Positions 11,439-44,206 of a stretch of 64,000 bases of DNA are shown piece by piece (the stretch's first letter is position 1; each line of letters begins with the position of its first letter). The translations under genes and the position numbers were made by a program. Below the pieces are notes generated by a model. It was not told the origin of the DNA, searched no databases, and saw only the letters and a list, made by a program, of their open reading frames with translations. Source of the DNA: Acidobacteriota bacterium (lineage in GTDB: Bacteria; Acidobacteriota; CAIWXX01). Location of the stretch: the NCBI GenBank assembly GCA_040755995.1, contig JBFMAF010000031.1:20375-84374 (forward strand). Direction: 5' to 3'.

Positions 11439-11489
11439 TTCTTCCTCCTTTCCTTATCCAATCCACGTTCCGTCCGAGGCACGGGCGGA

Positions 11490-20804: not shown

Positions 20805-22511
20805 ATGAACGAGCAAGAGCAACTCACTCGCAAGCTCGCGCCCAGCAAGATGATCGGCCACTATGCCGTCATCGACCAGCTCGGTCGCGGCGGAATGGGC
20901 GAGGTCTTCGTCGCAAGAGACACCAAGCTCGACCGCAAGGTCGCTCTGAAGGTGCTTGCGCACGAGGTGACGGCGGATGCCGAACGGCTGCAGCGGTTCC
21001 AGCGCGAGGCCAAGATGCTTGCGGCGCTCAACCACCCGAACATCGTCACGATCTTCTCGGTGGAGGAGGCCGAGGAGCTTCATCTGCTGGTGATGGAGCT
21101 GGTCGAGGGCAAGACACTACGGCAGGTTATCCCGAGAGGCGGGTTGCCGCTGGCCAAGTTCTTCGACATCGCCTTGCCGCTCGCCGAGGCCCTCAGCGCC
21201 GCGCACGAGCGCGGCATCACGCACAGGGACCTCAAGCCGGAAAACGTAATGGTCACGGACTCCGGCCGCGTGAAGGTGCTCGACTTCGGCCTGGCCAAGG
21301 TCTCCCACGGCCACGCCTATTCGGAATCCACTCACGAGAGCTCCACCAAGGCAGTCACACAGCTGGGGGTGATCCTGGGCACAGTGCCCTATATGTCGCC
21401 CGAACAGGCGCAGGGCAAGCCGGTCGATCACCGGTCCGACATCTTCTCGCTCGGCATCGTGCTATACGAGATGCTCGCAGGCGAGAGGCCGTTCAAGGGC
21501 GAGACCGTCTCCGACCTGATCGCCTCGATCCTGCGCGATACGCCCGGATCGGTCAGCAGCCTCCGCACCGGCGTGCCGCGGGAACTGGGAAGGATCGTCC
21601 GCCACTGCCTGGAGAAGAATCCGCAAGACCGCATTCAGTCCGCGCTCGACCTGCACATCCAGCTGAAGGGCCTCTGGAAGGATCTCGAGCTGGAGCGCGC
21701 GATCACAAGCGGCAAGCGCCGCTACTCGACCACCCGGCGAAGGCCTCTTATCCCGGTCAACCTCTTCGGCTGGCTCGTCAATACACGATGGGGCCTGACT
21801 GCGCTCCTCGCCGGCGTCCTGGCGTTCAATTACCTGGAGACCTCGACCGAGACGGCGCTCAAGGCAAGCTACGGCTGGGGAATGGACCTCGGTTATCACC
21901 TCGCGCGAAGCGCCCACTGGTTCGAATGGATGTTCAGCTTCGATCGGCACGACGTGACCAACACACTGGCCGTCTATGGCTACTCGATCTCGTACTTCAT
22001 GCTCTTTCCGGTTCTCGTGATCCTCGTCGGTCTCGCGCTTGCGCGCCGCGAGGACCTGGCGCCGTATCGCGTTTTCGCGATCGCAATCAGCCTAACGTAC
22101 GCTGTCAGCCTGCCGTTCTTTCTCCTGTTCCCGGTGCCCGAACGATGGTCATTCCCCGACGCCGAAGCAGTGCTGCTCTCGGATCTGTGGACATCCAAGC
22201 TGATCGAGATGTTTCGGCCGATCAGCGGACTGGACAACTGCTTCCCGAGCTTCCACGTCGCGACAACCGTTGACATGGTCCTCGCCTCATACCTCTTCCG
22301 GCTCCGCACCCGCTCGACCGTCCTGATCCTCGGCCTGACCATCATCCTCTCGACCTTTGTCCTCGGCATCCACTGGCTGGTGGACATCGTTGCCGGCGTA
22401 GCGACGGGCGTTATCAGCATTGCCATCGCGATGCGCGCCGACCGGTCGCTCGAACGGCCGATCGGCAGTGCCGGCAGCGGTGCACTCGCAGAATCACAGC
22501 AGTCCGCGTAG
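20805..22511 (+). CDS. Ser/Thr protein kinase fused to a PAP2_C-type (lipid phosphate phosphatase / phosphosphingolipid synthase-like) membrane domain
   Basis: Kinase motifs GRGGMGEVF, VALKVL, HRDLKPENV, DFGLAK and YMSPEQ. The C-terminal 6-TM region has CFPSFHV and GIHWLVDIVAG (PAP2 C2/C3-type motifs). Confidence 0.85.
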   Translation: MNEQEQLTRKLAPSKMIGHYAVIDQLGRGGMGEVFVARDTKLDRKVALKVLAHEVTADAERLQRFQREAKMLAALNHPNIVTIFSVEEAEELHLLVMELVEGKTLRQVIPRGGLPLAKFFDIALPLAEALSAAHERGITHRDLKPENVMVTDSGRVKVLDFGLAKVSHGHAYSESTHESSTKAVTQLGVILGTVPYMSPEQAQGKPVDHRSDIFSLGIVLYEMLAGERPFKGETVSDLIASILRDTPGSVSSLRTGVPRELGRIVRHCLEKNPQDRIQSALDLHIQLKGLWKDLELERAITSGKRRYSTTRRRPLIPVNLFGWLVNTRWGLTALLAGVLAFNYLETSTETALKASYGWGMDLGYHLARSAHWFEWMFSFDRHDVTNTLAVYGYSISYFMLFPVLVILVGLALARREDLAPYRVFAIAISLTYAVSLPFFLLFPVPERWSFPDAEAVLLSDLWTSKLIEMFRPISGLDNCFPSFHVATTVDMVLASYLFRLRTRSTVLILGLTIILSTFVLGIHWLVDIVAGVATGVISIAIAMRADRSLERPIGSAGSGALAESQQSA

Positions 22512-22606
22512 AAAGCGCGGCCCACCATAGGGCGCGCCGGATGCCCAACTGGGCGAATGGCGCTGTGATATACTACGCCTTCACTCTGGACTGGGAGAGA
22601 AAGACG

Positions 22607-23731
22607 ATGCGATCGATACCACTGTTGGACCTGCGCGCACAGTACGAGACGATCAAGGCTGATGTCGACATAGCGATTCAGCGATCAATTGACAAGACGG
22701 CGTTCATCGGCGGAGAAGAACACGAGGGTTTCGAGAAGGAGTTTGCCGGGTACCTCGGGTGCCGAGCCTGCGCGGGCGTGGCCAACGGGACGGATGCGCT
22801 GGTATTGGCGCTGCGCGCGCTGGGGGTCGGGCCCGGCGACATTGTCCTCACCACCCCTTTCACGTTCATCGCGACGGTCGAGGCAATCACGCTGAATGGC
22901 GCCGTGCCGGTCTTCGCCGATATCGATATCGGCAGCTTCAACGTCTCGCCCGAGTGCGTCCGGCTGGCGATCGAATCGATGCGACCGGAGGACAGGAAGA
23001 GGCTCAAGGTCATCCTGCCGGTACACCTGTACGGCCTGCCGGGGGCGGTCCACGAGCTGTGTGCGATCGCAGAAGAATTCGGGGCGAAGGTGCTCGAGGA
23101 CTGCGCGCAGGCGCACGGGGCGGCGGTGGCCGGAAAGCGCGTTGGCAACTTCGGCATCGCGGGCACGTTTTCGTTCTATCCCGCGAAGAACCTGGGCGCG
23201 TACGGCGACGCGGGCGCCATCGTTTCGAACGACCATCCGTTCATTGATCACGTGAAGTCGCTGCGGAATCACGGGCGGACCGACAGGTACGCACACGCAA
23301 TCGAAGGCGTGAACAGCCGGCTTGACGGCATACAGGCCGCGGTGCTCCGCGTGAAGCTCCGCAGGCTCGATTCATGGAATGCGGCGCGGCGCCGGTTTGC
23401 CGCGCTCTACAACGAGCTGCTGGCGCCATGCGCGCGTATCGCAGTGCCTCAGGTTTCAGAGGGGGCCGTGGTACATCTCTACACGATCCGGCACCCGGAG
23501 CGCGATCGGCTCCGCGAGCACCTCGGCAAGCAAGGCATCGCCGCGGCCGTGCACTACCCGGCCCCGTTGCATCTGCAGCCGGCCTACGCCCGGCTTGGGC
23601 TTGGTGAGGGAACGTATCCTGAATCCGAACGCGCCTCACGCGAGGTCCTTTCGCTGCCGATCTACCCGGAGATGGGTGAGGAGGCCGTGCGGCACGTGGC
23701 CTCGAAGATACTCGAATTCGAACGCGTGTAG
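22607..23731 (+). CDS. DegT/DnrJ/EryC1/StrS family sugar aminotransferase (start taken at MRSIPLLDL)
   Basis: IPLLDLRAQYETIK..., GTDALVLALRALG and FSFYPAKNLGAYGDAGA (PLP-Lys motif) are family hallmarks. Confidence 0.88.
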   Translation: MRSIPLLDLRAQYETIKADVDIAIQRSIDKTAFIGGEEHEGFEKEFAGYLGCRACAGVANGTDALVLALRALGVGPGDIVLTTPFTFIATVEAITLNGAVPVFADIDIGSFNVSPECVRLAIESMRPEDRKRLKVILPVHLYGLPGAVHELCAIAEEFGAKVLEDCAQAHGAAVAGKRVGNFGIAGTFSFYPAKNLGAYGDAGAIVSNDHPFIDHVKSLRNHGRTDRYAHAIEGVNSRLDGIQAAVLRVKLRRLDSWNAARRRFAALYNELLAPCARIAVPQVSEGAVVHLYTIRHPERDRLREHLGKQGIAAAVHYPAPLHLQPAYARLGLGEGTYPESERASREVLSLPIYPEMGEEAVRHVASKILEFERV

Positions 23732-23736
23732 ACTGG

Positions 23737-24438
23737 CTACATGGCCGGCGTGTGCGGGCTGTCCTGTGGCGACCCGGCACCTGGAGGCTCATGGGTAGCC
23801 ATCGAGCCCAGAGCCCATCCGAGCAGGCCGACAAGCGCGAGGTAGACGGCGGCGAGCACGGTGTATGACCACGCGCGACCGGGCAGGCCGGGCTTGCCTG
23901 ATGCCACTTGCACGGCGAGATTGCGCAGGCCGGCCGCGACACCCAGGCCGGCTGACTTCGGCGGCACGAAGCCGCGGTAGTGCGGTATGAAGGCGAGCTC
24001 GGTGCCGTCGTGCGTAGTGCCCACGGCCAGAACAGGTGCACCTGCTGCTTCAGGGGCGTCGAGATAGAACCGGATCGGCGATCCCGGCAGGTTCTTCTTG
24101 GGCTTGAAAGCGCACGGGTAGTAGCCTGGCAGCCGGATGGCGCCCGCGTCGATCGTCAGCCTGTCGCGGTCAGCTGAAGCCGAGGGCGATTCGCGGTAGT
24201 GAAAGACGATGAGATTCTTGCTGGGAGGCTGGACGGGCGTCAGGTATAGATCGATGCGAAAGAGGCCGGTGCGCTCTGGAGTGAAGGTGCAATCGACGGT
24301 GGAGGGCCCGACGACTCTCGTGACCCTGCGATCCGGTGTCGGCACCGGCTGGACCTGGCGCGAAGCGAGGAGAATAGCTGCGGCGACGATTGAGAGGAGG
24401 AGTGTCGCACAGAGACCGCGGAACCGGACGCGTTTCAT
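23737..24438 (-). CDS. Hypothetical bitopic membrane protein (N- and C-terminal TM, central beta-rich domain)
   Basis: 233 aa. Last gene of the minus-strand run that starts at 32348, 3 nt after the upstream stop. Confidence 0.55.
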   Translation of the reverse strand: MKRVRFRGLCATLLLSIVAAAILLASRQVQPVPTPDRRVTRVVGPSTVDCTFTPERTGLFRIDLYLTPVQPPSKNLIVFHYRESPSASADRDRLTIDAGAIRLPGYYPCAFKPKKNLPGSPIRFYLDAPEAAGAPVLAVGTTHDGTELAFIPHYRGFVPPKSAGLGVAAGLRNLAVQVASGKPGLPGRAWSYTVLAAVYLALVGLLGWALGSMATHEPPGAGSPQDSPHTPAM

Positions 24439-24441
24439 TGC

Positions 24442-25818
24442 TTAGTTGAAAGGCGTCAAGTAGAAGAAGGGAATCGCCGTGTTGAAGAGGCTGAAGGCGT
24501 CGAGTGCGACGAGCCCCGCTGTGAAGAACAGCAGCGCCGCGCGTTCGAATCGCTGAGGGAAGAGCGTGAGCCAACCGCCTGCGGCGACGATCGCCAGAGC
24601 TGAGATCGCGACGAAGAGAAACCGGCCCTGGCGCAGCACGTTGCCAGTGGTGGAGGAGACAAACAGGCCAAGGAGGAACAGGATGGGCAACGCGGCGGTC
24701 AGGCTCACGATCCTGGCCGTGGCCCTGTCGGCGGCTGCGGTGTTTCGAACACACACAAACCAGCCGGCGATCAGGAGCAGCGTGAGGACGAAGAGGATCA
24801 AGTAGAGCGCGCTGGGCAGTGTGAGCGACAGCCAGCTGAAGTACATCCAGAAGCTCATGAACAGCGTCTTGCACGCCACGGAGAACCCCGCGAGGGCCTT
24901 CTCCAGGCGCTCGCCCGAAATGACCAGCATCACGCGTTGCCTCCATTCCTGGTTGAACAGAGTCACGGCCCATCCCTTGAGATAGGCGAGGAGCTGCTGA
25001 GACAAGAGCACAGTCAACAGCACACCCAGGGCGCAGATCGACACGCCAAGGGCCAGCCGCCAAGGCCGTACGCGCCGGTCCAGGATCTTCTTGCGGAGCG
25101 CTCCGGCGAGAACGATGAGCGGGACGGGGAGTACCGCGAAGGCGGTTGCCTTCGTGATGCACGCTGCGCCGCAGCACAGGAGCAGCAGCGTGACGCGCCA
25201 GGCCGTGAAGCCTTGTCGCATGCCCTTGAGGGTGAGGTAGAGGGCCGAGGTCGTGAGTAGCTCGGCCAGGTTACCGTCGTAGAGCGAGGCAGTGGTCACT
25301 CCGCGCTGAGGCAGGAAGAGCACAAACAGAGCAGCGCCCCAGGCAACGAGCGGTCGCGCTGGGAACGCCTGCCTGGCGATTGCGAACGTGAGGAGCACCA
25401 CCGCCATCCCGATCACAACCGAGATCGCGCGCATGGCGTAGAGTTGGATGACGATGGGCTTGTCGATCCAGGGAGCCACTGCGACGGCGTACAGTACATA
25501 GGCGAGCGAGAATCGACCGGTGGTGCGTCCTACACCGAATTGCGGCAGATTCTCGAAGCGCCCGGGAAGCGGTGCCGGGGGCTGGCGATAGAGGAAGCTC
25601 CACGTGCGGTAGGTGAACAGCGAGTGGATGAGCTCGCGATCGAGGAGAGGTGAACTGTCGGCGAGGCTCGTCGGGCGCCGGTACTCCGCCAGTAGTCGTT
25701 GCGCCTCGAAATGCGCTGGTTCGTCAGGACCCTGCCAGGGCGGGATGATCGCCAGGTACAGGGCGCCGCGCACCAGGGCCAGGGCGGCCAGCAGCCAAAG
25801 GACCGGCGCTGCCCGCAC
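24442..25818 (-). CDS. DUF2142-like polytopic membrane protein (GT-C-like)
   Basis: N-terminus IIPPWQGPDEPAHFE matches the DUF2142 signature (PP.Q.PDE..H). More than 10 TM segments. Confidence 0.6.
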   Translation of the reverse strand: MRAAPVLWLLAALALVRGALYLAIIPPWQGPDEPAHFEAQRLLAEYRRPTSLADSSPLLDRELIHSLFTYRTWSFLYRQPPAPLPGRFENLPQFGVGRTTGRFSLAYVLYAVAVAPWIDKPIVIQLYAMRAISVVIGMAVVLLTFAIARQAFPARPLVAWGAALFVLFLPQRGVTTASLYDGNLAELLTTSALYLTLKGMRQGFTAWRVTLLLLCCGAACITKATAFAVLPVPLIVLAGALRKKILDRRVRPWRLALGVSICALGVLLTVLLSQQLLAYLKGWAVTLFNQEWRQRVMLVISGERLEKALAGFSVACKTLFMSFWMYFSWLSLTLPSALYLILFVLTLLLIAGWFVCVRNTAAADRATARIVSLTAALPILFLLGLFVSSTTGNVLRQGRFLFVAISALAIVAAGGWLTLFPQRFERAALLFFTAGLVALDAFSLFNTAIPFFYLTPFN

Positions 25819-25941
25819 CGAGGTGGAGCTGGAGGTGCTCGGTTCAGTGCTTCCGGCCGGCGACTTTCACGTCCTTCCTACGAGGACACAACAGTGTTGG
25901 CGCGAAAGCCCCGAAGGCCGAGGAGGGTCTGACCCAGCCTG

Positions 25942-28476
25942 CTACTCCCCCCAACCGCCCCCGCCGGCGCTGGGTTTCTTCTTCGAGAGGCTCTTCTTCG
26001 CGGTGATCGTTTGTGAGTTGCCCTCGCCACCCGCCGCATCCACGAGATAGACTGTCATCTCGAACGACTTGTACCGAGTGCTGTACTTCTTGAAGCGATT
26101 CTCCCATTCGATCGTTCCGGTGGTCGTGCCGGTAATGGACTTCACCTTGGCGGGTATCGCGACCGACTGCCGGTATGTTCTTCCGTTGGACTTGTACTTG
26201 TAGGAAACCCTTATGCGACCTCCAGACAGGTCGCCGTTGGCATCGGAGTAGTCCAGAGAGAACGTGGCACGGCTCGACTTGATCGAGGACTTCTGCGCGA
26301 GATTCGAAATGGCCGGGGCATCATCGGCGGCCCCTTCCTTGAAGACCGCCGTCACCGACTTGTTCGCATCCATCGTGACGTTGATCGGATTGGTCGATCC
26401 CGTCACACTCCCCGTCCAGTAGTCGAACGAATAGCCGTCGGCGGAGGTGGCCCGCACGCTCACAACGCTGCCCGCCGCGTAAACACCGTAGTTGGGTGTC
26501 ACGGTGCCGGTACCCGCCGGCGAGATGTTGGTGCTGAGCGTGTATGTGGTGCCGCCACCGCCGTACGTGAAGTCGGCGTAGATGACCTTGTTCGAGTCGA
26601 TCGTGATGTTGATCGGATTCGCGTTGCCTGCGCTCGTACCGTTGACGTTCCACGCGGTGAACGAGTAGTTGGCAGCCGGTGTTGCTGTGAACGCGATGAC
26701 ACTTCCAGCAGCGTACCAGAGCGCGCCGGTCGGAGCCACTGTACCGCCGTTCGTCGGATTCGCGGAGGTGGCGACCGAGTACGCCAGGTCAAAGGCGGCT
26801 GTGAGCGTGACGCTCCCGGCAGGCATTGAATAGGTATACGCCCGATTCGTGCTCAACACTTGACCACCCGCGTCCCTCCAGCTGTTGAAGATGTAGCCGG
26901 TGTTGGCGGTGGCGACCAGTGCGAGCTGCGAACCTGGAGCAGCCTGCGTGGAGGTAGCCGACTTGCCGTTGATCGTGGTGGACCCGCCGCCTGCTGGGGC
27001 CAAGGTGATGGTCAGCGTAGGCCAAGAGGTGTTGTAGAAATTGGCCACGACGTTCTTCGCGCGGTCCATCGTGATTGTCTTCGGGTTCTCGGTGCCGGAC
27101 GCGTCACCGCTCCAGCCTGTGAACTGCCAGTCGGTGCTCGCCGGTGTTGCGGTGATCTGCACGTTCTCGCCCATGTCATACACAGACTTGTCCGGGTTCT
27201 TCGTCACGACACCGCCTTCGGTCGGGGAGGCCGATGCGATCAGCGTATTGGAGTTCGTCGCAGTGGCGCCCCATACATCTTCGTAGCTTAGGCGCCACTG
27301 GATGAAGTAGTTGTCCGCGCCGCGCGCGGCCACGTGCACCTGGTCGCCTCCGATCGACTGTACGATGACGGACGTCCCGTCAAGCACACCGGTGCTGCTG
27401 CAGGTGGCGGCCTTCAGGTTCCACTGGCCGCCGGCCGGGGCTTCGTACCAGCCCAGGACATAGCGCCCCCCGTCCCACCAGAGGTCGCCGGAGTGGACGT
27501 CGAAGGCCGATGCCAGAACCTTGCGGTCGATGAGGCCCGAGGGTCCCAGTCTGGCGAAGTACAACTTACCCGATGACACGAGATCCGACCACTGCCAAGC
27601 GGCGCCGAATTCGTTGTTCGTGGAATTGAAGTTGATGTGAGGGATGAGGTTGAGGGTGGACTCGCTCACCTGCACGGGACCTGTCTGGATGGTCAGGTCC
27701 GACTTCTTGATATAGACATAGTGGATATAGCGGTTGCTGCTGTATGTGTAGGCGATCCCGTACCCATTGGCGTCGGCCGCGATAGTAGGGCCGCTTGCAT
27801 TGGGGCCCCCGAACTGTGGGAGCTGCCAGAGCGCTGCCTCCCATTCCGGCATCGTCTGGATTGGTGCGGCCATCCAACCGAGGACGTTGCCGGCGTTGTC
27901 CATCGTGAGGAGGCGCAGGTCCCAGTTGGCCACGCCGGGCTGATAGTACCCGAACACCACTGCGTAGCGGTCGTATGCGCTGTCCCAGACGATATCGGGT
28001 CCGTCCGGCCGATAGGGGAAGGAGTTGGAGATGACGACGGGACTCGATTTCTCTCCGGTCTTCTTGACCCATGCGAACTCCAAAACGCTCGTCGTCCCGG
28101 TCGCATCGTACCTGACCCAGACCACGCCGAACTTGCCGCGATTCGCGTCGAATGCGACGCGCGGGTTCCCCTGGATGCCGCCGGCGTCGTTGCTGACCTG
28201 GTAGATTCCGATGGGCGCCCCGGGGTTGTTCGCATCCACGAACACAACCTTGATCCGGCTAGGGCCCGAATCCGTGTCGATTATCGTGATCGCGTAGACG
28301 CCGTCGGCGTAGATCATCGAATGTGAATGTAGGCCGTGTGATGAGCCCAATGCCTTGTCGACGACCTTGTATGGCGTTCCCACGGTGAGGGCTTGCAGGG
28401 GCGCCGGCGTCAACGATGCCACCGCAAGGATCAACCCGAACGTCACAAGTGACAAGAACACCGCCTGCTGCTTCAT
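25942..28476 (-). CDS. Large secreted protein: beta-propeller-like N-terminal half, four InlB B-repeat (Flg_new) domains, Lys/Gly-rich tail (start taken at MKQQAVFLSL)
   Basis: Signal peptide MKQQAVFLSLVTFGLILAVASLTPAPLQA. Blade-like motifs recur (FGVVWV, RYAVVFGY, YGIAYTY, FGAAWQW, RYVLGWY). There are four copies of the GG.V...P....Y..G..V...A.P..GY.F..W.G...G..NP..+TMD..K.V.A.F pattern. Confidence 0.75.
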   Translation of the reverse strand: MKQQAVFLSLVTFGLILAVASLTPAPLQALTVGTPYKVVDKALGSSHGLHSHSMIYADGVYAITIIDTDSGPSRIKVVFVDANNPGAPIGIYQVSNDAGGIQGNPRVAFDANRGKFGVVWVRYDATGTTSVLEFAWVKKTGEKSSPVVISNSFPYRPDGPDIVWDSAYDRYAVVFGYYQPGVANWDLRLLTMDNAGNVLGWMAAPIQTMPEWEAALWQLPQFGGPNASGPTIAADANGYGIAYTYSSNRYIHYVYIKKSDLTIQTGPVQVSESTLNLIPHINFNSTNNEFGAAWQWSDLVSSGKLYFARLGPSGLIDRKVLASAFDVHSGDLWWDGGRYVLGWYEAPAGGQWNLKAATCSSTGVLDGTSVIVQSIGGDQVHVAARGADNYFIQWRLSYEDVWGATATNSNTLIASASPTEGGVVTKNPDKSVYDMGENVQITATPASTDWQFTGWSGDASGTENPKTITMDRAKNVVANFYNTSWPTLTITLAPAGGGSTTINGKSATSTQAAPGSQLALVATANTGYIFNSWRDAGGQVLSTNRAYTYSMPAGSVTLTAAFDLAYSVATSANPTNGGTVAPTGALWYAAGSVIAFTATPAANYSFTAWNVNGTSAGNANPINITIDSNKVIYADFTYGGGGTTYTLSTNISPAGTGTVTPNYGVYAAGSVVSVRATSADGYSFDYWTGSVTGSTNPINVTMDANKSVTAVFKEGAADDAPAISNLAQKSSIKSSRATFSLDYSDANGDLSGGRIRVSYKYKSNGRTYRQSVAIPAKVKSITGTTTGTIEWENRFKKYSTRYKSFEMTVYLVDAAGGEGNSQTITAKKSLSKKKPSAGGGGWGE

Positions 28477-28509
28477 CTCACCGTACCTCCTCGAAGAGAT
28501 CCGGCGCGA

Positions 28510-28538
28510 AAAATACCACAAACGTCGACAAAAGTCAA
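28510..28538 (-). promoter_or_regulatory. Sigma70-like promoter dedicated to the large secreted protein
   Basis: Minus strand has TTGACT (28538-33), a 17-nt spacer and TATTTT (28515-10), followed by a GAGGAGG RBS and ATG 28476. Confidence 0.5.
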
Positions 28539-28595
28539 AAGAATCGCGGCCGATGTCGAGGCCTGCTGCGAACACAGCGCCGCTGGGGGGCGGCA

Positions 28596-29762
28596 TCATT
28601 CGGCCCGATCGAGAGAAGTCCGTTCTCGGGAAGACACCCAACGCCGCACGGCGTCAATCACGTGCGACTGATCGTCGATCGTAAGCTCGAAGTAGAACGG
28701 CAATCTCAGCAGGCGTGCGCTGACATCCTCGGTGACGGGACACGTCCCTTCGTGACCCCCGAAACGCCTCCCCATCCCCGACAGATGCAGCGGCAGGTAA
28801 TGGAAGACGCTGTGGACGCCATCGGCCCTCAGGTCCGCAATCAGAGAATCGCGATCGGCCTCGGAGCGTAGTAGCATGTAAAACATGTGATAGGGCTGCT
28901 CGCAGTGGCCCGGCACCACCGGCAGACGGATGCCCGTGTCACCGGCAATCGGCTGCAATGCAGAGTAATACCGCTCCCATATCTCGCGGCGTCTCGCCTG
29001 AATTCTGCCGCGCTGTTCGATCTGGGCCAGCAGAAACGCGGCAAGCATGTCGGACGGCAGGTAGCTGCTGCCGACATCCACCCACGTGTACTTATCCACC
29101 TCGCCTCGGAAGAACCTCGACCTGTTCGTCCCCTTCTCCCTGATGATCTCCGCGCGCTCGACCAGCGACGGGTCATTGATCAGCAAGGCACCCCCTTCGC
29201 CGCACGTCAAGTTCTTCGTCTCGTGGAAGCTGAGTGTCGCCAGTGAACCGAACGCGCCGAGCGGGCGGCCGCGGTACTTGCCGAACAGGCCATGGGCGTT
29301 GTCCTCGATCACGGCGATGCTGCGGCGGCTGGCAATGTCGATGATCGCATCCATCTCGCAGCCGACGCCGGCGTAGTGCACCACCACGACTGCCCGCGTG
29401 CGATCGGTCACGAGCCGTTCGAGCCCGGTCTCGTCGATATTCAGCGTGTCCGGCCTGATATCGGCGAACACCGGCCGCGCACCTCTCATGACGAACGCAT
29501 TCACTGTCGAGACGAATGTGAACGACGGAACGATGACTTCATCGCCCGTTTTGATGTCCAGCAGGATAGCCGCCATCTCGAGAGCATGCGTGCAAGAGGT
29601 CGTCAGCAGCGCTTTGCGCACGCCGAGCGTCTCCTCGAGCATCTTGTGGCAGCGCCTGGTGAACGGGCCGTCGCCCGAGATGTGCCCATTCTTGATGGCT
29701 TCAGCCACGTATCGCAACTCTTCTCCGACCACGGCTGCTCTGTTGAAGGGTATCCCGTGCAT
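28596..29762 (-). CDS. wecE: dTDP-4-amino-4,6-dideoxygalactose (4-keto-6-deoxyhexose) transaminase
   Basis: Near-colinear with my recollection of E. coli WecE: IPFN...GDG.FTRRC, PSFTFVSTVNAF, HYAGV.CEMD, FSFHETKN, IIREKGTNRS.FFRGEVDKYTW.D.GSSY, LRLP. Confidence 0.88.
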   Translation of the reverse strand: MHGIPFNRAAVVGEELRYVAEAIKNGHISGDGPFTRRCHKMLEETLGVRKALLTTSCTHALEMAAILLDIKTGDEVIVPSFTFVSTVNAFVMRGARPVFADIRPDTLNIDETGLERLVTDRTRAVVVVHYAGVGCEMDAIIDIASRRSIAVIEDNAHGLFGKYRGRPLGAFGSLATLSFHETKNLTCGEGGALLINDPSLVERAEIIREKGTNRSRFFRGEVDKYTWVDVGSSYLPSDMLAAFLLAQIEQRGRIQARRREIWERYYSALQPIAGDTGIRLPVVPGHCEQPYHMFYMLLRSEADRDSLIADLRADGVHSVFHYLPLHLSGMGRRFGGHEGTCPVTEDVSARLLRLPFYFELTIDDQSHVIDAVRRWVSSRERTSLDRAE

Positions 29763-29804
29763 GGCCGTCAGAGCATACCCGCAGTCGAAGCGTGCGACAA
29801 GTGC

Positions 29805-30650
29805 TTATGCGTGCTTGCGCGCGACCGCCAGCAGCGAGGTGCCCCGTCCGAACGATAGCAACCCGATCGACCGCCATTCGGCCGCCAGCACCGTCTTCAG
29901 GATCCGGTTGGCCAGTGGGCCGACTGAGAACTCCGCAGCAGTGTCCGCCACGCGGCGGTTCCGGCGAAGGCGTGCGCTCAGGTAGGCGAGCGGCCAGAGC
30001 GTCCTGAAGAGCGGCACCATCAGCTCGATCTCCAGCGCTGCTGCTCGAAGAAGGCTCCGGAGCGTCTTCGGCCTGTAACGGCGATAGTGCCCCGCGTATA
30101 CGTCCAGATGGCTCCACAATGAAGGCCATGCCGGTACAGTGAGAGCCAGCAGCCCCCCCGCGACTAGAGTGGCAGCACATTCACGAACGAACTTCATGTC
30201 ATCTTCGACGTGTTCGATCACATCGAACGCTCCGACCAGCGAGAAGGTCGACTTGAAGGGCATCGGGATGCCCGTTGTCACTACCACGCTCGCGATACCA
30301 GTCAGCGCACGCGCCGACAGCACCTCGCGAATGCTCGCGTCGGCGCCCACCTTGTATCGGCCCGGCAGGACAGGCAGCAGATATCCGTCCCCACACCCGA
30401 TCTCGAGGGTGCGGCCCTCGCTCTGAGGCATCAGGCGATGGAGGACTTCTTGCAGCGCGCGCTTCCGCGTCTCGAACCAGAAATGACCTTCACGAATGGC
30501 GCGGAACGCGGCGTGAGCATCCTCGGGGAATTGCCCACCTTCTCCGGAGCGGGGTGCCGGCGCCTCGCCCCTACGGCCAGAAATGATAGTAGTACTCCTG
30601 CTTCTCGATCGAAAATCCGCACTTCGCGTAGAGGCGATTCGCCCCTGCAT
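29805..30650 (-). CDS. Class I SAM-dependent methyltransferase (start uncertain; the track ORF overlaps the upstream gene by 80 nt)
   Basis: An HFWFE motif is followed by LEIGCGDGYLL (motif I) and FDVIEHVEDD. Confidence 0.7.
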   Translation of the reverse strand: MQGRIASTRSADFRSRSRSTTIISGRRGEAPAPRSGEGGQFPEDAHAAFRAIREGHFWFETRKRALQEVLHRLMPQSEGRTLEIGCGDGYLLPVLPGRYKVGADASIREVLSARALTGIASVVVTTGIPMPFKSTFSLVGAFDVIEHVEDDMKFVRECAATLVAGGLLALTVPAWPSLWSHLDVYAGHYRRYRPKTLRSLLRAAALEIELMVPLFRTLWPLAYLSARLRRNRRVADTAAEFSVGPLANRILKTVLAAEWRSIGLLSFGRGTSLLAVARKHA

Positions 30651-31389
30651 TCGAGCCCTGTGTCACCACCTGTACTCGTTCGAGATTGTTCCGGGCAAAC
30701 CAGCGCAGCGCCGCACGCACCAAGGCCTCGCCGAGCTTCCTCCCGCGCCACTCCCGGTCTACCGCGACCAGCCCGATGTCCCCTCGCGAACCCTTCCGTC
30801 CGACCGTGATCATGCCGGTGATTGCACCGCCGCTTGCCGCAACGAGGACGTCGTCTGCGAGGGTCTTGTCCACCGATTTCTTGATCCAGATGGTGTACAG
30901 CTCCTCAAACTTGTTTCTCGGTATGAGCGGGTCGACGGCAAAGCGCGAGTGCTCGCCGGCCTGAATCGCCAGTGAGATCAGGTCGGGGCTCGCAGCATCG
31001 ATTCCGTACGATCGGATCCCGAACGTTGCGCCCGCCTCAGTGATCACATCACGGCTCAGGTCGATCGCGTAGGTGGTCTTCACGTCCACAAGCCGTCCGT
31101 TGTGGCTCTGCAGAACCGGATCACGTTGCTCGATTGCCGAGGAAGTGGGCCAGTAGATCAGCTTTGCACCCGTCTGCGCGAGCGCGCGGAGGATTCGGGA
31201 GAGGGGCCGATGGCTCAACACGGGACAGGTGATCCGCGCCACTGGAAACCCAAAGAACTCGGAGTCCCATTTCAGGATCTCGCAATCCTGCCAGCCGGCG
31301 CCATCGGTCGGGCAGACGCTCATCTGCGCCCCATCGCCGCCCTTGTTGCCGGCCGGTGCGGAGGGTACGTCATCGACGGGACGGCTCAT
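30571..31389 (-). CDS. wecD: GNAT acetyltransferase resembling dTDP-fucosamine acetyltransferase
   Basis: The WDSEFFGFPVARI N-terminal motif (W.N.FFG in WecD), SRF, the GNAT core GLVAVDREWRGRKLGEAL and a C-terminal QVVTQGSNAGANRLYAKCGF. The ATG shares one base with the GT2 stop (TGATG). Confidence 0.65.
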   Translation of the reverse strand: MSRPVDDVPSAPAGNKGGDGAQMSVCPTDGAGWQDCEILKWDSEFFGFPVARITCPVLSHRPLSRILRALAQTGAKLIYWPTSSAIEQRDPVLQSHNGRLVDVKTTYAIDLSRDVITEAGATFGIRSYGIDAASPDLISLAIQAGEHSRFAVDPLIPRNKFEELYTIWIKKSVDKTLADDVLVAASGGAITGMITVGRKGSRGDIGLVAVDREWRGRKLGEALVRAALRWFARNNLERVQVVTQGSNAGANRLYAKCGFSIEKQEYYYHFWP

Positions 31390-32348
31390 CAACGTGTGAC
31401 GGGGTCACGATCGACCGTGTGGTCCGGTGTTTCAGCACCGATCACATACGGCGGCCGCTGCATGCTGCGGAAGTGCACGCGCGCGAGGTACTCGCCGATA
31501 ATGCCCAGCGCGAACAGCTGGGCGCCGGAGAACAGGGCGATGATGGACGCGAGAAACGCGAATCCCGGCACCGCGGCGCCTTGGATTAGATAACGGCCAA
31601 GGACATATGCAAGCACGAAGCCGCCGAATATGGTGAATGCGAACCCGACGAGGCTGGCAATCTGCAGCGGTCTGGTGCTGAATCCGGTAACCATGTTGAG
31701 CGTGTGCCGGATGAGCATCCGCAGCGTGTAGTTGGACCGGCCGACCCTCCTGGGCTCGCGGTGCACCCTCGCCGACGAGAACTTCGTCGTTCCCCACGTA
31801 AGAAGCACGTCCATGTTGACGAATGCGCCGTGGTAGTCGGCGAATGCGTCTCGGACGCAGGTCCGGAACGCACGAAAGGCCCCGACGTCCCGGGCAGTCG
31901 CGACCCCCATCGTGCTCTTCAGCGCGGCCTTCGTCACCACAGACGCGAGGTCCCGCCAGAGACCATGCCGTTCCTTCTCCGGAACGCCGTACACGACGTC
32001 CTGCCCCTCGCCGAGCCTCTCGATCAGCCCCCGAATCTCCGACGGGGGATGTTGTAGATCGTCATCCATCGTTACCGTGATCTCGTAGCTCGCCTTTCGA
32101 ATGCCGCACAGCAAGGCACTGTGCTGGCCGGCGTTCTTCGCGAGTCGGACGCCTCGAACCCACGCGTGTCGCGACGCCAAATCCTGGATGGCCGCCCAGC
32201 TTCCGTCGGCACTCCCGTCATCCACCAGTATCGCTTCGTACGCTGAGCTGACCGTGGGCAGCACCTCTCCGAGCTGGCGAACGAGCTCCCCGATCGTGGC
32301 CTCGCCGTTGTAGACGGGGATGACCACGGAGATCCTATTCTTCATCAT
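31389..32348 (-). CDS. GT2 polyprenyl-phosphate glycosyltransferase (ArnC/GtrB/Dpm1-like)
   Basis: ISVVIPVYNGE, VDDGSADGS, MDDDLQHPP and RSNYTL, plus two C-terminal TM helices, give the ArnC/GtrB family layout. Confidence 0.85.
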   Translation of the reverse strand: MMKNRISVVIPVYNGEATIGELVRQLGEVLPTVSSAYEAILVDDGSADGSWAAIQDLASRHAWVRGVRLAKNAGQHSALLCGIRKASYEITVTMDDDLQHPPSEIRGLIERLGEGQDVVYGVPEKERHGLWRDLASVVTKAALKSTMGVATARDVGAFRAFRTCVRDAFADYHGAFVNMDVLLTWGTTKFSSARVHREPRRVGRSNYTLRMLIRHTLNMVTGFSTRPLQIASLVGFAFTIFGGFVLAYVLGRYLIQGAAVPGFAFLASIIALFSGAQLFALGIIGEYLARVHFRSMQRPPYVIGAETPDHTVDRDPVTR

Positions 32349-32479
32349 CTATACTCGATCGCAATCTATACTCGATCGCTCCGGCCCTCAACGCACCGTA
32401 CCCGTCCTCCCAGGCTCTATCTACCACACTTGGGCGACCCGCGAAAGCACTGCACCACCACCGGCCATCCGGCCCGTTC

Positions 32480-34138
32480 ATGCTAGAATCTCACACCATG
32501 GCCAGCGGGAAGGCGGCAGGTTACTTCGCCCTTTGCGTAGCGGCGAACTCAGCCGCGCTCTGGTTACTGGCCGTGCCGTTCGCGGATATCTGGTTCAGCA
32601 CCGACGAAGGCCTTTACGCCTACCAGGCCCAACGGATACTCGACGGACAGGTGATCTACAGGGACTTCTTCCAGGCCATCATGCCAGGCTACTTCTTCAT
32701 GCTTGCTGGCTGGATGAAGGTCGCCGGAATGGGAGTGGCATCTTTGAGGGCCTTCATGATCCTGCTGATGCTCGCCACCTCGATCGCCATCTACCTCGCC
32801 TCCAGGCGCCTCGGCGTGCCGACTCTTCTCAGCATTGTGCCGGCTCTCACGTTCAGTGTGCTCAGGAGCCGATACAACTTCGAGCTGAATCACTACGCAC
32901 CCAATCTCCTCTTCGAGACAGCCACGCTGAGTCTTGTCTGTTCGCAGGCCTTGCGGCCCGCCCGCTGGAAGCTGGCTCTCGCGGGGACGCTCGTATCCGC
33001 TGACGTCCTGACGACGCAGCACGTGGGCGCCCACCTGCTCATCGGAACTATCTTCAGCGTCGTGTTCCTGTCAGTGGTCACTCGGCAGAACGCCTGGCGT
33101 GAGATGCTGTCGTTCATCGAAGGCGCACTGCCGCTGCCGATCGCCTACCTTGGTTACGCAGTACACACCGGGTCCCTTGCCGCCATGTTCCGGTGCACTG
33201 TTCTCTGGGTCTTCAGCCACTACACGAGGTTCGACACGCAGGACTACTGGTACTACTGGGTGAGGCTGACATGGCGCCTTTTCACAGAGAACCCAGGCGC
33301 CGGAACGGCCCATGATTTCGCGCTGGGAGTCGTCGAGAGCTTCGCCGCCCCGGCAGCAGTCCTGATCAGCGCCGTCTGGCTTCTGCGGCTGTGGCGGGTA
33401 TCGGGGACGCTCGACGATTCGCAACGCGCCTTCGGCGCTGCAGCGTTGATCGCAGCTTCCATGTACGCTTGCATCTACGCCGCTCCCAACAGCATTATCA
33501 GCCGCGTTTCCCTCACCGGATATCTGCTCGCCTACGCGCTGGTGCACCGCGTCTACTCGCAATGGCGCAGGCCTTGCCCGCGATTGGGCCTTCGTGGTGG
33601 GCTGGTGCCCGGAGGCGTCGCCGCACTCCTCCTGCTGGCAGTTCCGCTTAGAACCGCCAGGGTATTCGGAAACATCCTGCTGCAACACAGCACTATGCAG
33701 ACGACCACTTACAGAACGGCCCACGGGCCCATCCGGCTGCCAGTTGAATCCGACACGGGCCAGCTCGATGTGCTCTCATTCCTCGCCAGGAACGCAACGC
33801 CAGCGGAATTCGTCTATGCCGCGAACTGGTCGCCCTGGGTGTACTACCTCGGCGGCTATCGCAACCCAGGAACCACGGAGTACCTCCTGCCGTACTTCAC
33901 CACCGATGCCACCGTTCGGGAGACGGTCAGAATTCTAGACAGCACCCGCACCCGATGGCTGGTCCAGGACAGCATCGTTCGCCGCGGCCTCGAACACAAC
34001 GACGGAAGGCTGCAGTCGTTGAGCGAGCTGCTCATGCAGCAATGGCAATTCAACCGGTACCGCGATTCGAGCTACACCGTCGCAGTGGTCTTCGGAGACT
34101 ACACGATCTACCGGAGAAAGGAGACGGCGCCCGAGTAG
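32480..34138 (+). CDS. Polytopic membrane protein, GT-C-like (ArnT/PMT_2-like)
   Basis: The first-loop motif STDEGLYAYQAQRILDGQVIYRDFF is typical of the GT39/83-like families. About 11 TM segments and a soluble C-terminal domain of about 130 aa. Confidence 0.55.
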   Translation: MLESHTMASGKAAGYFALCVAANSAALWLLAVPFADIWFSTDEGLYAYQAQRILDGQVIYRDFFQAIMPGYFFMLAGWMKVAGMGVASLRAFMILLMLATSIAIYLASRRLGVPTLLSIVPALTFSVLRSRYNFELNHYAPNLLFETATLSLVCSQALRPARWKLALAGTLVSADVLTTQHVGAHLLIGTIFSVVFLSVVTRQNAWREMLSFIEGALPLPIAYLGYAVHTGSLAAMFRCTVLWVFSHYTRFDTQDYWYYWVRLTWRLFTENPGAGTAHDFALGVVESFAAPAAVLISAVWLLRLWRVSGTLDDSQRAFGAAALIAASMYACIYAAPNSIISRVSLTGYLLAYALVHRVYSQWRRPCPRLGLRGGLVPGGVAALLLLAVPLRTARVFGNILLQHSTMQTTTYRTAHGPIRLPVESDTGQLDVLSFLARNATPAEFVYAANWSPWVYYLGGYRNPGTTEYLLPYFTTDATVRETVRILDSTRTRWLVQDSIVRRGLEHNDGRLQSLSELLMQQWQFNRYRDSSYTVAVVFGDYTIYRRKETAPE

Positions 34139-34205: not shown

Positions 34206-36098
34206 TCATCTCGTCATCCCTTCGTGCTCCATCTCATCTGACTCCGGATGAGGCGATTCGGACCCACGTACGTTGCGAGTCGTGAGCCGTATAGAGCTCA
34301 GCCGGAAGGGATGTACCCTGCCGTCGGCGTCCGCAGCATGCAGCACAAGTAGATTGGCACTCCTCCATGTCCTCCGCGGCACCCGCACCGTCCGGGGTCT
34401 CCAATCTGGGCCGATGCTGAGCGGTGGCAACGGGCTGCCGTTCAGCGTGACCCGGACAGTCTGCGGGTTCTCTGAACGGGCCTCGAAGGTCAGCTCCGAT
34501 ACGATCAGCGGCACGGGATCCAGGCCGAACACGACCCTTCCATATCCACCAGGGGCCTCCTTGCTCACACGGTTGACTCCCTCTTCGGCGCGCGACCACG
34601 TCATGGTGGCACGGTCCCCCGGCATTCGCGACACCTCAAGCACTCCCCGGCCGTTGTGCAGCACCAGTGCCGCTCCGGACTCAATAGCGTACTGATCCAT
34701 CACACTCAAGTCGTTCTCCTCGGCCCTCCACCACACCAGTGGAATGCGCAGTGCAGGCAGGGTGGAGTACTCTCGCGCGAGCAGAGGCAGATCCATTGCC
34801 ATCATCCAGGCCAGGCAGACGCAAGCTATTGCCTTGCCGTGGATCGTCGGCAGTCCATTGCGACGACTCGCGAGCGCCGCGGCGGCGAGTGGGACGACCA
34901 TGACCGCGTAGGGAATCGCGTATCTCCTCGCAATCCACATCACGAACCCTGCGGGCACGAGATTGGCGAGTATCCACACGATCGGAAGGCTCTGCTCCCA
35001 GCGACGGACGCATCCGACGCCGATTGCGGCAGCGAAAAGCAGAAACACATATACGATGTCTCCAACGACGGACATCGCCCATCGTACGATTGATGCCTCA
35101 GGCGGCCCCACTGGCGGCCACCAGATCGCTTTCAAGTTGTGATGTCGGAAGGAAAGGTAGAACCACGAGAACACGTTCGATGGATTGGCAGCAAGGCCTT
35201 GAAATCTCTCCTTCAGGATCTTCCCCAGTGGGAAATCGACCCGTGCGCGTCGAATGTCGAGATACGGCAACGAGACTTCACGTTGCTCGGGCGGCAACTG
35301 GTCCCGCACGTATCTTTCCCACTCCGGGTTAGGCCACAGCACACCATACGCTCCTATGTTGTCGACGCCGAAGAAGCGGTGATAGAGGAGACTGTTGCGA
35401 ACTACCCAGGGGACAACAGCGCCGAGAAACCCGATGGCAAAGGCGGCCGCGAGCCACAGCCGGCGTCTTCGAAAAGGGTACAGGAGCCACAGGGCCAGGA
35501 CTGGGACCGCGTACTGCGGTGCTGATCGCACGAGCGCAGCCAGGCCCATCGTGACGCCTGCCACGGTGGAGATGATACTGAGATCTCGCGCCGACGCCCA
35601 CGCGAGAAGAAGCAGCGCCAGCAGAATGAGAAATACGTAGAGGTTCTCTGTCATGATCTGCACCGGGAGGAAATACAGATCCGCCAGGAAGACTGCAAGA
35701 AATCCGGCGATACGTCCGGCTGTCTTGCCGAAAAGGAGTCCAGTGAAAGCGGCGAGCAGGAGTGGCAGAACCGATCCCATCACCGCTTGCAAGATTCGTA
35801 TCGCTGCGACAGAAGGTCCAGCGAGCATCATCCACCCACCGAGGAACGCGAAATACAGAGGTCCGCGGGACCATCCGCCATAGCTGTGCCACCTGTCATC
35901 CCAGAACGCGCCGGCCGTCCTCGCGAACTGGGCTGCCTGCGCGTAATAGCCGCCGCCGTCGTCGTCCGGATAATGCGGAGGTGCCTCCAACTCCGGGAGG
36001 AGGACGGCAAGACGGACGGCGAGCGAGAACGCGTAGAGGCAGTACCAATAGCGAGCCGATCGGACGTGACGTAGGAAGCGGTGAACCAAGCTGCGCAT
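34206..36098 (-). CDS. Polytopic membrane protein, GT-C-like, with a roughly 200-aa C-terminal beta-rich domain (start taken at MRSLVHRF)
   Basis: PDDDGGGYYAQAAQFA first loop, many TM helices, and a C-terminal domain ending ...FRLSSIRLT. Confidence 0.55.
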   Translation of the reverse strand: MRSLVHRFLRHVRSARYWYCLYAFSLAVRLAVLLPELEAPPHYPDDDGGGYYAQAAQFARTAGAFWDDRWHSYGGWSRGPLYFAFLGGWMMLAGPSVAAIRILQAVMGSVLPLLLAAFTGLLFGKTAGRIAGFLAVFLADLYFLPVQIMTENLYVFLILLALLLLAWASARDLSIISTVAGVTMGLAALVRSAPQYAVPVLALWLLYPFRRRRLWLAAAFAIGFLGAVVPWVVRNSLLYHRFFGVDNIGAYGVLWPNPEWERYVRDQLPPEQREVSLPYLDIRRARVDFPLGKILKERFQGLAANPSNVFSWFYLSFRHHNLKAIWWPPVGPPEASIVRWAMSVVGDIVYVFLLFAAAIGVGCVRRWEQSLPIVWILANLVPAGFVMWIARRYAIPYAVMVVPLAAAALASRRNGLPTIHGKAIACVCLAWMMAMDLPLLAREYSTLPALRIPLVWWRAEENDLSVMDQYAIESGAALVLHNGRGVLEVSRMPGDRATMTWSRAEEGVNRVSKEAPGGYGRVVFGLDPVPLIVSELTFEARSENPQTVRVTLNGSPLPPLSIGPDWRPRTVRVPRRTWRSANLLVLHAADADGRVHPFRLSSIRLTTRNVRGSESPHPESDEMEHEGMTR

Positions 36099-36298
36099 GC
36101 GGACGGCAGGATAACCACAGCACCGGCATGTGTCAATCAGGCCGATGCCGCGGTGCCGCGGCGCGGCTGCCGCCCCCCTGCCGCATTCATGCGTAGGATT
36201 CCCTGTCCCTGCTCTCTCTTTCTCTCCGCCGATTGACCCCGTGCGCGCTCGTGTCGTAGGATGCCGTGCCAGTTCTGAGGGAGTGTGGCAGACACAGC

Positions 36299-40842: not shown

Positions 40843-40938
40843 GACTCGGAAACGACAACCAGGCCCTCCCCCAAGTCTGTTACGCCCCCGGGTAGCTCAG
40901 ATTGATTGACCGGCGAGCTGCACGCCGGTAGAATCAAC

Positions 40939-44142: not shown

Positions 44143-44206
44143 CTCGTCATCCAGCCGCATGCCTGGCCTGATTTCCCCTCGGGATCTCCCGCCGCCGCCG
44201 GACGGC

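Follow-up and report, generated by a model that had tools for sequence, protein, structure and literature searches.

A predicted Arn-like amino-dideoxyhexose donor cassette beside a secreted propeller protein and a DUF2142-type gene pair in a bacterial glycan island

In three-component glycosylation, a family 2 glycosyltransferase (GT2) makes a polyprenyl phosphate-linked sugar, a flippase turns it over, and a GT-C-type enzyme adds the single sugar to a finished glycan outside the cytoplasm. Such glycosylation is known for glucose, N-acetylglucosamine, galactose, galactosamine and its N-acetyl form, 4-amino-4-deoxy-L-arabinose (L-Ara4N), galacturonic acid, mannose, and pentofuranoses. Here we analyze a 64,000-nucleotide stretch of an Acidobacteriota contig (JBFMAF010000031.1; hereafter the window), in which a minus-strand run of eight open reading frames (ORFs) at positions 23737 to 32348 combines a GT2 gene with genes for an amino-dideoxyhexose, a large secreted protein, and a DUF2142-like membrane protein. 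The run had earlier been read, from its sequence, as a single module for extracytoplasmic protein glycosylation (the original prediction). The reading that we favor, with somewhat better than even confidence, is that three units lie side by side in the run, within a rearranging glycan island: an Arn-like donor cassette (28596 to 32348), a lineage-specific propeller protein (25942 to 28476), and a WpsI/WpsH-like pair (23737 to 25818). Mechanistically, this would be a variation on a familiar kind of glycosylation.

Of the described systems, the Arn pathway, in which ArnB, ArnA, ArnC, ArnD, ArnE/F, and ArnT place L-Ara4N on lipid A, is closest to the cassette in sequence and logic. Common to both are a DegT-family 4-aminotransferase, N-acylation, an ArnC-type GT2 predicted to act on undecaprenyl phosphate, flipping, and a GT-C transferase, and relatives of the cassette carry formyltransferase and ArnE/F-like EamA genes. 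The aminotransferase, however, is an orthologue of WecE and not of ArnB, and therefore the sugar would be a dTDP-hexose-derived 4,6-dideoxyhexose and not a UDP-pentose. The amine would be capped by an acetyltransferase of the GNAT family and not, as in Arn, by the ArnA formyltransferase, neither an ArnD-like deacylase nor an ArnT equivalog was found among the ORFs scanned, and the host, judged by its relatives, is Chloroflexota-like, with no sign of lipid A as an acceptor. A WecE orthologue and a WecD-like acetyltransferase in one cluster also recall the branch of enterobacterial common antigen (ECA) synthesis that leads through dTDP-4-acetamido-4,6-dideoxygalactose (dTDP-Fuc4NAc) and comprises RmlA, RmlB, WecE, WecD, and WecF. 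E. coli makes dTDP-Fuc4NAc. In ECA synthesis, WecF adds this sugar cytoplasmically to an undecaprenyl diphosphate (Und-PP)-linked disaccharide, whereas the transferase linked to the cassette is an ArnC-like GT2.

The described three-component systems (GtrA/GtrB/GtrC, CsdA/CsdB/CflA, GacI/J/K/L, and the pentofuranose system of Kelly et al. 2024, PMC11127046) include a GtrB to which the cassette GT2 is homologous. Their donors are glucose, N-acetylglucosamine, galactose, and pentofuranoses, whereas here amino-dideoxyhexose genes are joined to the GT2 gene in one cassette and no dedicated small flippase was found in the window. In protein O-glycosylation, represented by actinobacterial Ppm1/Pmt and by streptococcal GtrB-PgtC2 and Pgf (PMC12041528), a GT2 likewise makes a lipid-linked sugar and a GT-C enzyme moves it to Ser/Thr residues of exported proteins; the GT2 of the Pgf system, PgfS, is the second NCBIfam match of the cassette GT2. 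In the known cases the acceptor is a Ser/Thr-rich disordered region or a set of adhesin repeats, unlike the 844-amino-acid (aa) secreted protein of the run, the GT-C protein of the run is DUF2142-like and not of the PMT or Pgf type, and no conserved linkage of GT2, GT-C, and acceptor genes is seen here. The lactococcal polysaccharide pellicle (PSP) pathway uses WpsA/B (GT2), WpsG (Wzx), WpsI (a DUF2142 GT-C polymerase), WpsH (a co-polymerase with two transmembrane [TM] helices), and WpsJ (GT-C), and the last two genes of the run have the WpsI/WpsH architecture, a likeness drawn from description and not from sequence. The functions of WpsI and WpsH are themselves proposed and have not been reconstituted. 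In Chloroflexota, by contrast, DUF2142 relatives stand beside a Bac_transf phosphoglycosyl transferase, often with a 500-aa single-TM protein, and not beside WpsA/B-type GT2s. The original prediction knew of no system that routes a Fuc4NAc-type sugar in this way onto a protein. We found no published polyprenyl phosphate-linked Fuc4NAc-type donor or WecE-ArnC-type cassette, an absence of evidence in a literature that was covered incompletely.

A widespread donor cassette

All eight minus-strand elements of the original prediction were found by ORF and family searches, in the order given and at or near the coordinates given, in a window of 60 to 67% G+C. The first gene (31389 to 32348) encodes a GT2 with a Glycos_transf_2 catalytic domain (Pfam) followed by two C-terminal hydrophobic helices (residues 233 to 251 and 263 to 281). 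It scores 164.6 bits against NCBIfam ArnC, over residues 4 to 303 on a 316-position profile, and 143 bits against PgfS. Residues 5 to 303 align end to end with solved ArnC (E 4e-44) and with Synechocystis GtrB sll0501 (E 1e-34). These alignments bear out the proposal of an ArnC/GtrB-type enzyme, and the protein is confidently predicted to be a polyprenyl-phosphate glycosyltransferase of that type.

The second gene (30571 to 31389) encodes a two-domain GNAT protein that aligns over its full length, both domains included, with E. coli WecD (2fs5; E 6e-7). Against NCBIfam PRK10975 it reaches 88.8 bits, below the cutoff of 219, in an alignment that again spans both domains. The GT2 stop codon and the GNAT start codon share one base (TGATG, in which the A of TGA is the A of ATG), and the GNAT gene appears from this junction to be translationally coupled to the GT2 gene. 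The third ORF (29805 to 30650), a generic S-adenosylmethionine-dependent methyltransferase (Pfam Methyltransf_23) that may act on an O or an N of the sugar, overlaps the GNAT ORF by 80 nucleotides, with no later in-frame ATG, GTG, or TTG past the stop codon of the WecD-like gene, so that there is either a true long overlap or else an unusual start codon. After a gap of 42 nucleotides follows the aminotransferase gene (28596 to 29762). Its product exceeds the equivalog cutoffs of two models of dTDP-4-amino-4,6-dideoxygalactose transaminase, PRK11706 (573.7 bits; cutoff, 375) and TIGR02379 (534.9 bits; cutoff, 434.85), matches solved WecE (6blg and 4piw) with an E value of 1e-132, and scores 445 bits against solved WecE versus 180 bits against ArnB; its 225 bits against NCBIfam ArnB fall below the 631-bit cutoff. 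It is thus assigned as an orthologue of WecE, the dTDP-4-keto-6-deoxy-D-glucose 4-aminotransferase.

To compare loci, we assembled 81 that carry relatives of the GT2: 80 from a metagenome scan, with GT2 identities of 57 to 66%, and the closest relative, L164 (85%), which was retrieved by exact look-up (locus numbers are those of our comparison sets). The GT2 has more than 8,000 homologues at E values of ≤1e-20, hundreds of them with 60 to 69% identity. All window proteins were compared with the 81 loci by tblastn; this and the hidden Markov model (HMM) thresholds used in the co-occurrence tests can miss very divergent proteins. WecE orthologues of 54 to 72% identity occurred in about 50 of the 81 loci, WecD-like genes in 29, and methyltransferase homologues in 21. 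Where at least 3 kb of downstream sequence was available, a WecE orthologue of at least 50% identity lay within 6 kb of the GT2 gene in 33 of 36 loci, and it was on the same strand and downstream of the GT2 gene in 45 of 49 cases. GT2, GNAT, methyltransferase, and WecE genes therefore form a widespread conserved cassette, and the amino-dideoxyhexose assignment of the original prediction gains from this coupling, both tight and wide, of the GT2 with WecE orthologues and N-capping enzymes. The DUF2142-like GT-C, its two-TM partner, and the secreted protein were found in none of the 81 loci.

The gene directly after the GT2 gene varies. It encodes a GNAT protein in 22 loci, WecE in 11, and a methyltransferase (of three types) in another 11. 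Two further loci have a formyltransferase there, with WbqC next, and one has an ATP-grasp enzyme; variants of this capping slot are spread across L085 to L163, for example at L131 2268 to 3658, L120 12009 to 13070, and L104 11947 to 12309. Small ArnE/F-like EamA membrane proteins are encoded in 10 cassette loci, and 4,6-dehydratase-like genes of the short-chain dehydrogenase/reductase (SDR) family occur in 7. In the Arn pathway, ArnC accepts only the N-formylated sugar (bioRxiv 10.1101/2025.01.29.634835), and a varied capping slot beside the GT2 gene mirrors the order of ArnA and then ArnC. By this logic, and given ArnC's acceptance of the capped sugar only, the product of the cassette would be polyprenyl phosphate-linked 4-acetamido-4,6-dideoxyhexose, possibly methylated. 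The cassette thus probably serves to attach an N-acetylated 4-amino-4,6-dideoxy sugar to a lipid carrier in the membrane, and the related loci suggest a family of differently N-capped lipid-linked amino-dideoxyhexoses. That some lipid-linked 4-acylamido-4,6-dideoxyhexose serves as the donor for a GT-C enzyme is, in our view, a sound prediction.

Several functions expected of such a pathway were looked for elsewhere in the window. Neither RmlA nor RmlB, the lack of which had been noted originally, was detectable in the 64 kb by profile scan or tblastn, and their genes may lie elsewhere in the genome. The 4,6-dehydratase-like SDR genes of the related loci gave weak tblastn matches in the window and one match of 58% identity to an SDR/epimerase gene at 49790 to 50773; as an RmlB candidate this protein was rejected (64.9 bits; cutoff, 365). 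No ORF of ≤260 aa in the window has three or more TM segments, and tblastn with the EamA-like proteins of related loci found no ArnE/F-like or GtrA-like flippase there. The only flippase-like gene in the window, a Wzx-family member on the plus strand (46944 to 48386), is 14 kb from the cassette. A scan of 40 window ORFs, a subset of the total, recovered no ArnA, no ArnD or other ArnD-like deacylase, no ArnT equivalog, and no WecF, WecA, or WecG.

GT-C genes around the cassette

Because related loci lack the DUF2142-like protein, we examined which membrane proteins accompany the cassette. Of 31 long loci, 20 encode a polytopic membrane protein of 400 aa or more either within the cassette or directly beside it, and in most of the others such a protein is one or two genes away. 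About half of 30 such proteins have Pfam GT-C matches (PMT_2 in nine, GT87 in three, and DUF2142, DUF2079, and PIG-M in one each). In the window, two plausible counterparts lie just upstream of the GT2 gene. The nearer, a plus-strand gene at 32480 to 34138 that is divergent from the GT2 gene, encodes a 552-aa polytopic protein, probably a divergent GT-C, with a TDEGLY motif after TM1. It has no Pfam match, and sequence and family-profile searches of the PDB were empty. Weak profile links connect it to PMT_2 proteins, hhalign gives a 51% probability of relationship to the DUF2142-like family, and an iterated HMM search placed members of its own family beside the GT2 gene in L107, L120, L137, L158, L141, and L124. 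The farther gene, on the minus strand at 34206 to 36320, encodes a Pfam PMT_2 (ArnT/PMT-like) GT-C in an ORF of up to 704 aa, the true start of which is probably further downstream; a PDB sequence search with this protein was also empty. Its 623-aa orthologue (58% identity) is encoded directly upstream of the GT2 gene in L164.

GT-C-fold transferases are thus encoded with the GT2, at 34206 to 36320, at 24442 to 25818 within the run, and probably at 32480 to 34138. The original prediction had paired the cassette with the DUF2142-like protein at 24442 to 25818, a pairing that the related loci do not favor, since other GT-Cs recur beside the cassette and the DUF2142-like pair normally adjoins a phosphoglycosyl transferase. 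The product of 32480 to 34138 or of 34206 to 36320 is most likely the cognate GT-C, as judged from these recurrent neighborhoods.

GT-C and GT-C-like genes are unusually dense in the window (6573 to 8216, 24442 to 25818, 32480 to 34138, 34206 to 36320, 37708 to 40362, and 40906 to 42375). Four of the GT-C-type proteins have Pfam PMT, PMT_2, or DUF2142 matches; the 884-aa product of 37708 to 40362 has about 14 TM segments and no family match. With at least five GT-C genes per 64 kb, adjacency is weak evidence for pairing.

In the 131-nucleotide divergent intergenic region between the GT2 gene and the gene at 32480 to 34138, directly upstream of the GT2 start codon, lies a perfect direct repeat of the 14-nucleotide sequence CTATACTCGATCGC, in two copies with a 17-nucleotide period (32349 to 32379). 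Elsewhere in the window, the sequence has one site with two mismatches only. The repeat could be an operator or a duplicated promoter element.

The DUF2142-type pair and the secreted protein

The gene at 24442 to 25818 encodes a DUF2142-like protein with a borderline Pfam score (29.5 bits; gathering threshold, 30.1). Its AlphaFold model (pLDDT, 74.5; pTM, 0.82) has among its first 20 Foldseek matches the GT-Cs ArnT, STT3, AglB, ALG9/12, EmbC, PglB, and Pmt4. The model thus predicts a GT-C fold, in agreement with the original description of the protein as GT-C-like. The family has 29 matches in the protein database and an invariant PPWQxPDExxHFE motif directly after TM1. Three bases further on, the gene at 23737 to 24438 encodes a 233-aa protein with hydrophobic segments at residues 8 to 26 and 193 to 211 around an extracytoplasmic domain of about 165 aa. 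This is a membrane protein, as had been stated, with two such segments and hence not strictly bitopic. An HMM of its two-TM family matches it with an E value of 8e-27.

A genome scan for the DUF2142-like protein gave 80 loci, and neighbors were clustered over 83. Almost all came from metagenome-assembled genomes of Chloroflexota (Anaerolineales, Caldilineae, Thermoflexus, and Ardenticatenales). The recurrent order is a Bac_transf phosphoglycosyl transferase (in 32 loci), an epimerase, the GT-C, a 500-aa single-TM protein (in 33), and a two-TM protein of about 250 aa (in 33), followed by ABC-transporter, GT2, or GT4 genes and sometimes by Wzz/tyrosine-kinase genes. The DUF2142-like GT-C and its two-TM partner are therefore a conserved pair of Chloroflexota polysaccharide loci. 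Neither the donor cassette nor the secreted-protein gene was found in any of the 83 loci, and none of those examined had a full-length ArnC-like GT2. The single-TM protein of about 500 aa has no Pfam family; it lies between the GT-C and its partner in 33 of the 83 loci (for example, L001 11393 to 12856) and is absent from the window.

Lactococcal WpsI is a DUF2142 GT-C and the proposed polymerase, and WpsH, with two TM helices around an external loop, is a proposed Wzz-like co-polymerase (PMC12599335, PMC9574508). The pair in the window has the same layout, a polytopic DUF2142 GT-C and then a protein with N- and C-terminal TM segments and an external domain, and by this analogy we infer that it is WpsI/WpsH-like and would belong to polysaccharide assembly. 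One could go further and assign the whole run to a unified route of the PSP type, in which the cassette GT2 would act as WpsA does and prime synthesis by loading the Fuc4NAc-type sugar on polyprenyl phosphate, cytoplasmic GTs of the island would extend the chain, the Wzx-like protein would flip it, and the DUF2142-like GT-C and its WpsH-like partner would polymerize it. The architecture does match WpsA, WpsG, WpsI, and WpsH (PMC9574508), Wzx, GT4, and GT2 genes share the island, and the GT2 gene and the pair are co-oriented. We nevertheless consider this route rather unlikely. In Chloroflexota the DUF2142 family is paired with a Bac_transf phosphoglycosyl transferase, which implies Und-PP intermediates, and not with ArnC-like GT2s; cassette loci usually have an adjacent GT-C of their own without a WpsH-like partner; and the ArnE/F-like small flippases in 10 of them argue for a monosaccharide donor.

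The pair's own history in this lineage is visible in L166, which has 85% DNA identity to window positions 21604 to 25800. The genes for the GT-C, its partner, a second DegT-family aminotransferase, and a kinase-PAP2 protein are collinear in the two. The homology ends at the 5' end of the GT-C gene, at the border with the secreted-protein gene, and the upstream gene in L166 ends differently from the 844-aa protein. The second DegT gene (22541 to 23731, plus strand) is convergent with the two-TM gene and still adjacent to it in L166. Beside it, there as in the window, is a gene (20805 to 22511) for a fusion protein, in which a Ser/Thr protein kinase domain is followed at the C terminus by a PAP2 lipid-phosphatase domain.

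The gene at 25942 to 28476 encodes the 844-aa secreted protein, which has an N-terminal signal-like helix, a β-propeller, four InlB B-repeats (Pfam Flg_new_2), and a C-terminal domain that ends in a Lys-rich tail. Its first 400 aa model as the propeller (about residues 30 to 410; pLDDT, 72.6), with the sugar-binding lectins PHL/PLL of Photorhabdus and sialidases as the best structural matches; since propellers are promiscuous in fold searches, this likeness is only a hint. Only two full-length orthologues were found (55% and 40% identity), other matches covering the B-repeats alone, and the protein thus appears to be lineage-specific. Neither orthologue adjoins the cassette or the DUF2142 pair. 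In L165, the orthologue adjoins orthologues of genes that lie 8 to 25 kb away in the window, namely, an amine oxidase (36266 to 37648), a PMT_2 protein (40906 to 42375), a GT2 (44111 to 45172), an FkbM methyltransferase, and an epimerase. Within this locus (6635 to 12517), it is two genes from the orthologues of the amine oxidase and of the 489-aa PMT/PMT_2 GT-C (40906 to 42375). In the third genome, the source of the 40% orthologue, the neighbors are a PMT_2 protein (448 aa), a methyltransferase, a carbamoyltransferase, a Wzx protein, and a GT2, and the orthologous pair of ArnC-like GT2 and GNAT genes, which comes from the same samples as that genome, lies either on another contig or at a distance of more than 10 kb. 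From these neighborhoods, the 844-aa protein tracks the glycan island and not the cassette or the DUF2142 pair.

The original prediction had cast this protein as the acceptor. That some local GT-C transfers a polyprenyl phosphate-carried, N-acetylated (possibly methylated) 4-amino-4,6-dideoxyhexose onto it we regard as distinctly unlikely; if true, the GT2/GT-C mechanism would here glycosylate a protein with a sugar that has never been reported for it. Should the protein carry a glycan at all, the family of the 40906 to 42375 GT-C may offer a more likely enzyme than the DUF2142-like family. The specific form of the idea, a single dedicated module in which the GT2 makes polyprenyl phosphate-Fuc4NAc (with or without a methyl group) and the DUF2142-like GT-C and its two-TM helper put it on the secreted protein, is very unlikely. 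It draws on the same-strand run with short gaps, on the glycosylation of streptococcal and actinobacterial proteins by GT2/GT-C systems (PMC12041528), and on the fact that the 844-aa orthologues always lie among GT-C and GT2 genes. Against it stand the failure of the three units to occur together in any of the 81 and 83 related loci, the separate location of the GT2-GNAT pair in the genome with the 40% orthologue, the synteny break between the GT-C and secreted-protein genes in L166, the embedding of the DUF2142 family in polysaccharide loci, and the small weight of adjacency among so many GT-C genes. Further, the protein has no Ser/Thr-rich disordered segment. Its overall Ser-plus-Thr content is 19%, and the maximum of 40% per 30 aa falls inside a folded B-repeat. 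The models and neighborhoods make it more likely that the protein binds or processes glycan than that it serves as a dedicated acceptor. The PSP-type route and the protein-acceptor model are both possible readings that find no support in the comparative data.

The run as a whole

Joint conservation was one of the points on which the original prediction had staked its single eight-gene module, naming a set not conserved together as grounds for giving the module up, and the set was found together in no related locus. We therefore return to the juxtaposition of three units. The gap of 119 nucleotides between the WecE and secreted-protein genes contains a sigma-70-like promoter match (TTGACT-17-[TG]TATTTT, 28510 to 28538, minus strand) and a GAGGAGG ribosome-binding site, and the 844-aa gene probably has its own promoter, as judged from this arrangement. 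The promoter had been called strong; the match is there, but its count is at chance level (2 promoter-like sites observed versus 2.1 expected in 11.5 kb, no commoner than in shuffled sequence), and so it is supported by position and not by statistics. The next gap, between the 844-aa and DUF2142-like genes, is 123 nucleotides. A terminator scan of the region gave matches at the level of shuffled sequence, none of them inside intergenic gaps, and an Rfam scan of positions 22 to 37 kb gave only a sub-threshold chance match, leaving the intergenic gaps without a riboswitch.

From the family assignments, folds, and co-occurrence statistics observed here, we infer the identity of the sugar, the lipid intermediate, the GT-C pairing, and the acceptor as follows. 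WecE would aminate dTDP-4-keto-6-deoxyglucose, the precursor being supplied by RmlA and RmlB encoded elsewhere. The WecD-like GNAT protein would N-acetylate the amine, with methylation by the methyltransferase as a possible further step. Next, the ArnC-like GT2 would move the capped sugar to polyprenyl phosphate, and the lipid-linked sugar would be turned over by a flippase not found in the window. Finally, the GT-C enzyme encoded at 32480 to 34138 or 34206 to 36320 would pass the sugar to an extracytoplasmic acceptor. Nearly all characterized GT2/GT-C decoration systems act on envelope glycans, and by that analogy the acceptor is most likely a glycan of the cell wall or surface.

Several observations weigh against the three-unit reading. 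All eight genes are co-oriented with no convincing terminator between any of them, so that co-transcription, and with it a functional link in this lineage, is possible. A weak DUF2142-type relative (phmmer E 2.6e-8) sits inside the cassette of L130 and L131. The small flippase, RmlA, and RmlB are all absent from the window. The GT-C status of the 552-aa protein draws on weak profile links, because the Pfam and PDB searches gave nothing. Both orthologues of the 844-aa protein lie in glycosylation-rich neighborhoods, with PMT_2, GT2, methyltransferase, and epimerase genes.

The run lies within a glycan island for the cell envelope that extends over about 30 kb. Judged by its relatives alone, the genome is probably one of the Anaerolineae (Chloroflexota), whereas the database record gives Acidobacteriota. 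The Wzx-family gene has GT2, FkbM methyltransferase, GT4, and epimerase genes as neighbors (44111 to 50773). The GT2 in this group (44111 to 45172) was considered as a second polyprenyl phosphate enzyme and rejected, since its ArnC match covers the catalytic core only and the protein looks conventional. The gene at 17191 to 18828, for a radical-SAM protein whose N-terminal zinc ribbon is of the HMPTM type, has 76% DNA identity to L164 positions 444 to 2087. In L164 it is again near the glycan genes, but its position relative to them differs, which illustrates heavy rearrangement of the island. A 539-aa ORF at 42445 to 44064 has two Thy1 (ThyX) stretches and about twice the usual ThyX length, and it could be a tandem-duplicated flavin-dependent thymidylate synthase. 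Farther along, an ORF at 54598 to 56136 has a match (E 6e-16) to Porin_O_P, a family of phosphate-selective porins of the outer membrane, and overlaps a minus-strand ORF at 54544 to 55731. Chloroflexota, to which the relatives of the genome belong, are usually regarded as lacking a classical outer membrane. The least credible of the readings is that the cassette modifies a membrane lipid or lipoglycan as Arn modifies lipid A, for which its likeness to Arn and the hint of an outer membrane in the porin-like gene would speak, because the ORFs scanned include no ArnA, ArnD, or ArnT equivalogs and no lipid A genes, and because with no deacylase seen the sugar would stay N-acetylated and neutral, which removes the charge-masking rationale of Arn.

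Taken together, these results place the locus in a large uncharacterized clade that combines an ArnC-like GT2, a WecE orthologue, and an exchangeable capping-slot enzyme (acetyl, formyl, methyl, or ATP-grasp). For the transferase, they point instead to the GT-C genes that lie upstream of the run, and they identify the WpsI/WpsH-like pair as a recurrent feature of Chloroflexota polysaccharide loci. From this clade one would expect a new family of sugar donors, lipid-linked amino-dideoxyhexoses, in Chloroflexota and in other environmental bacteria with poorly understood envelopes.

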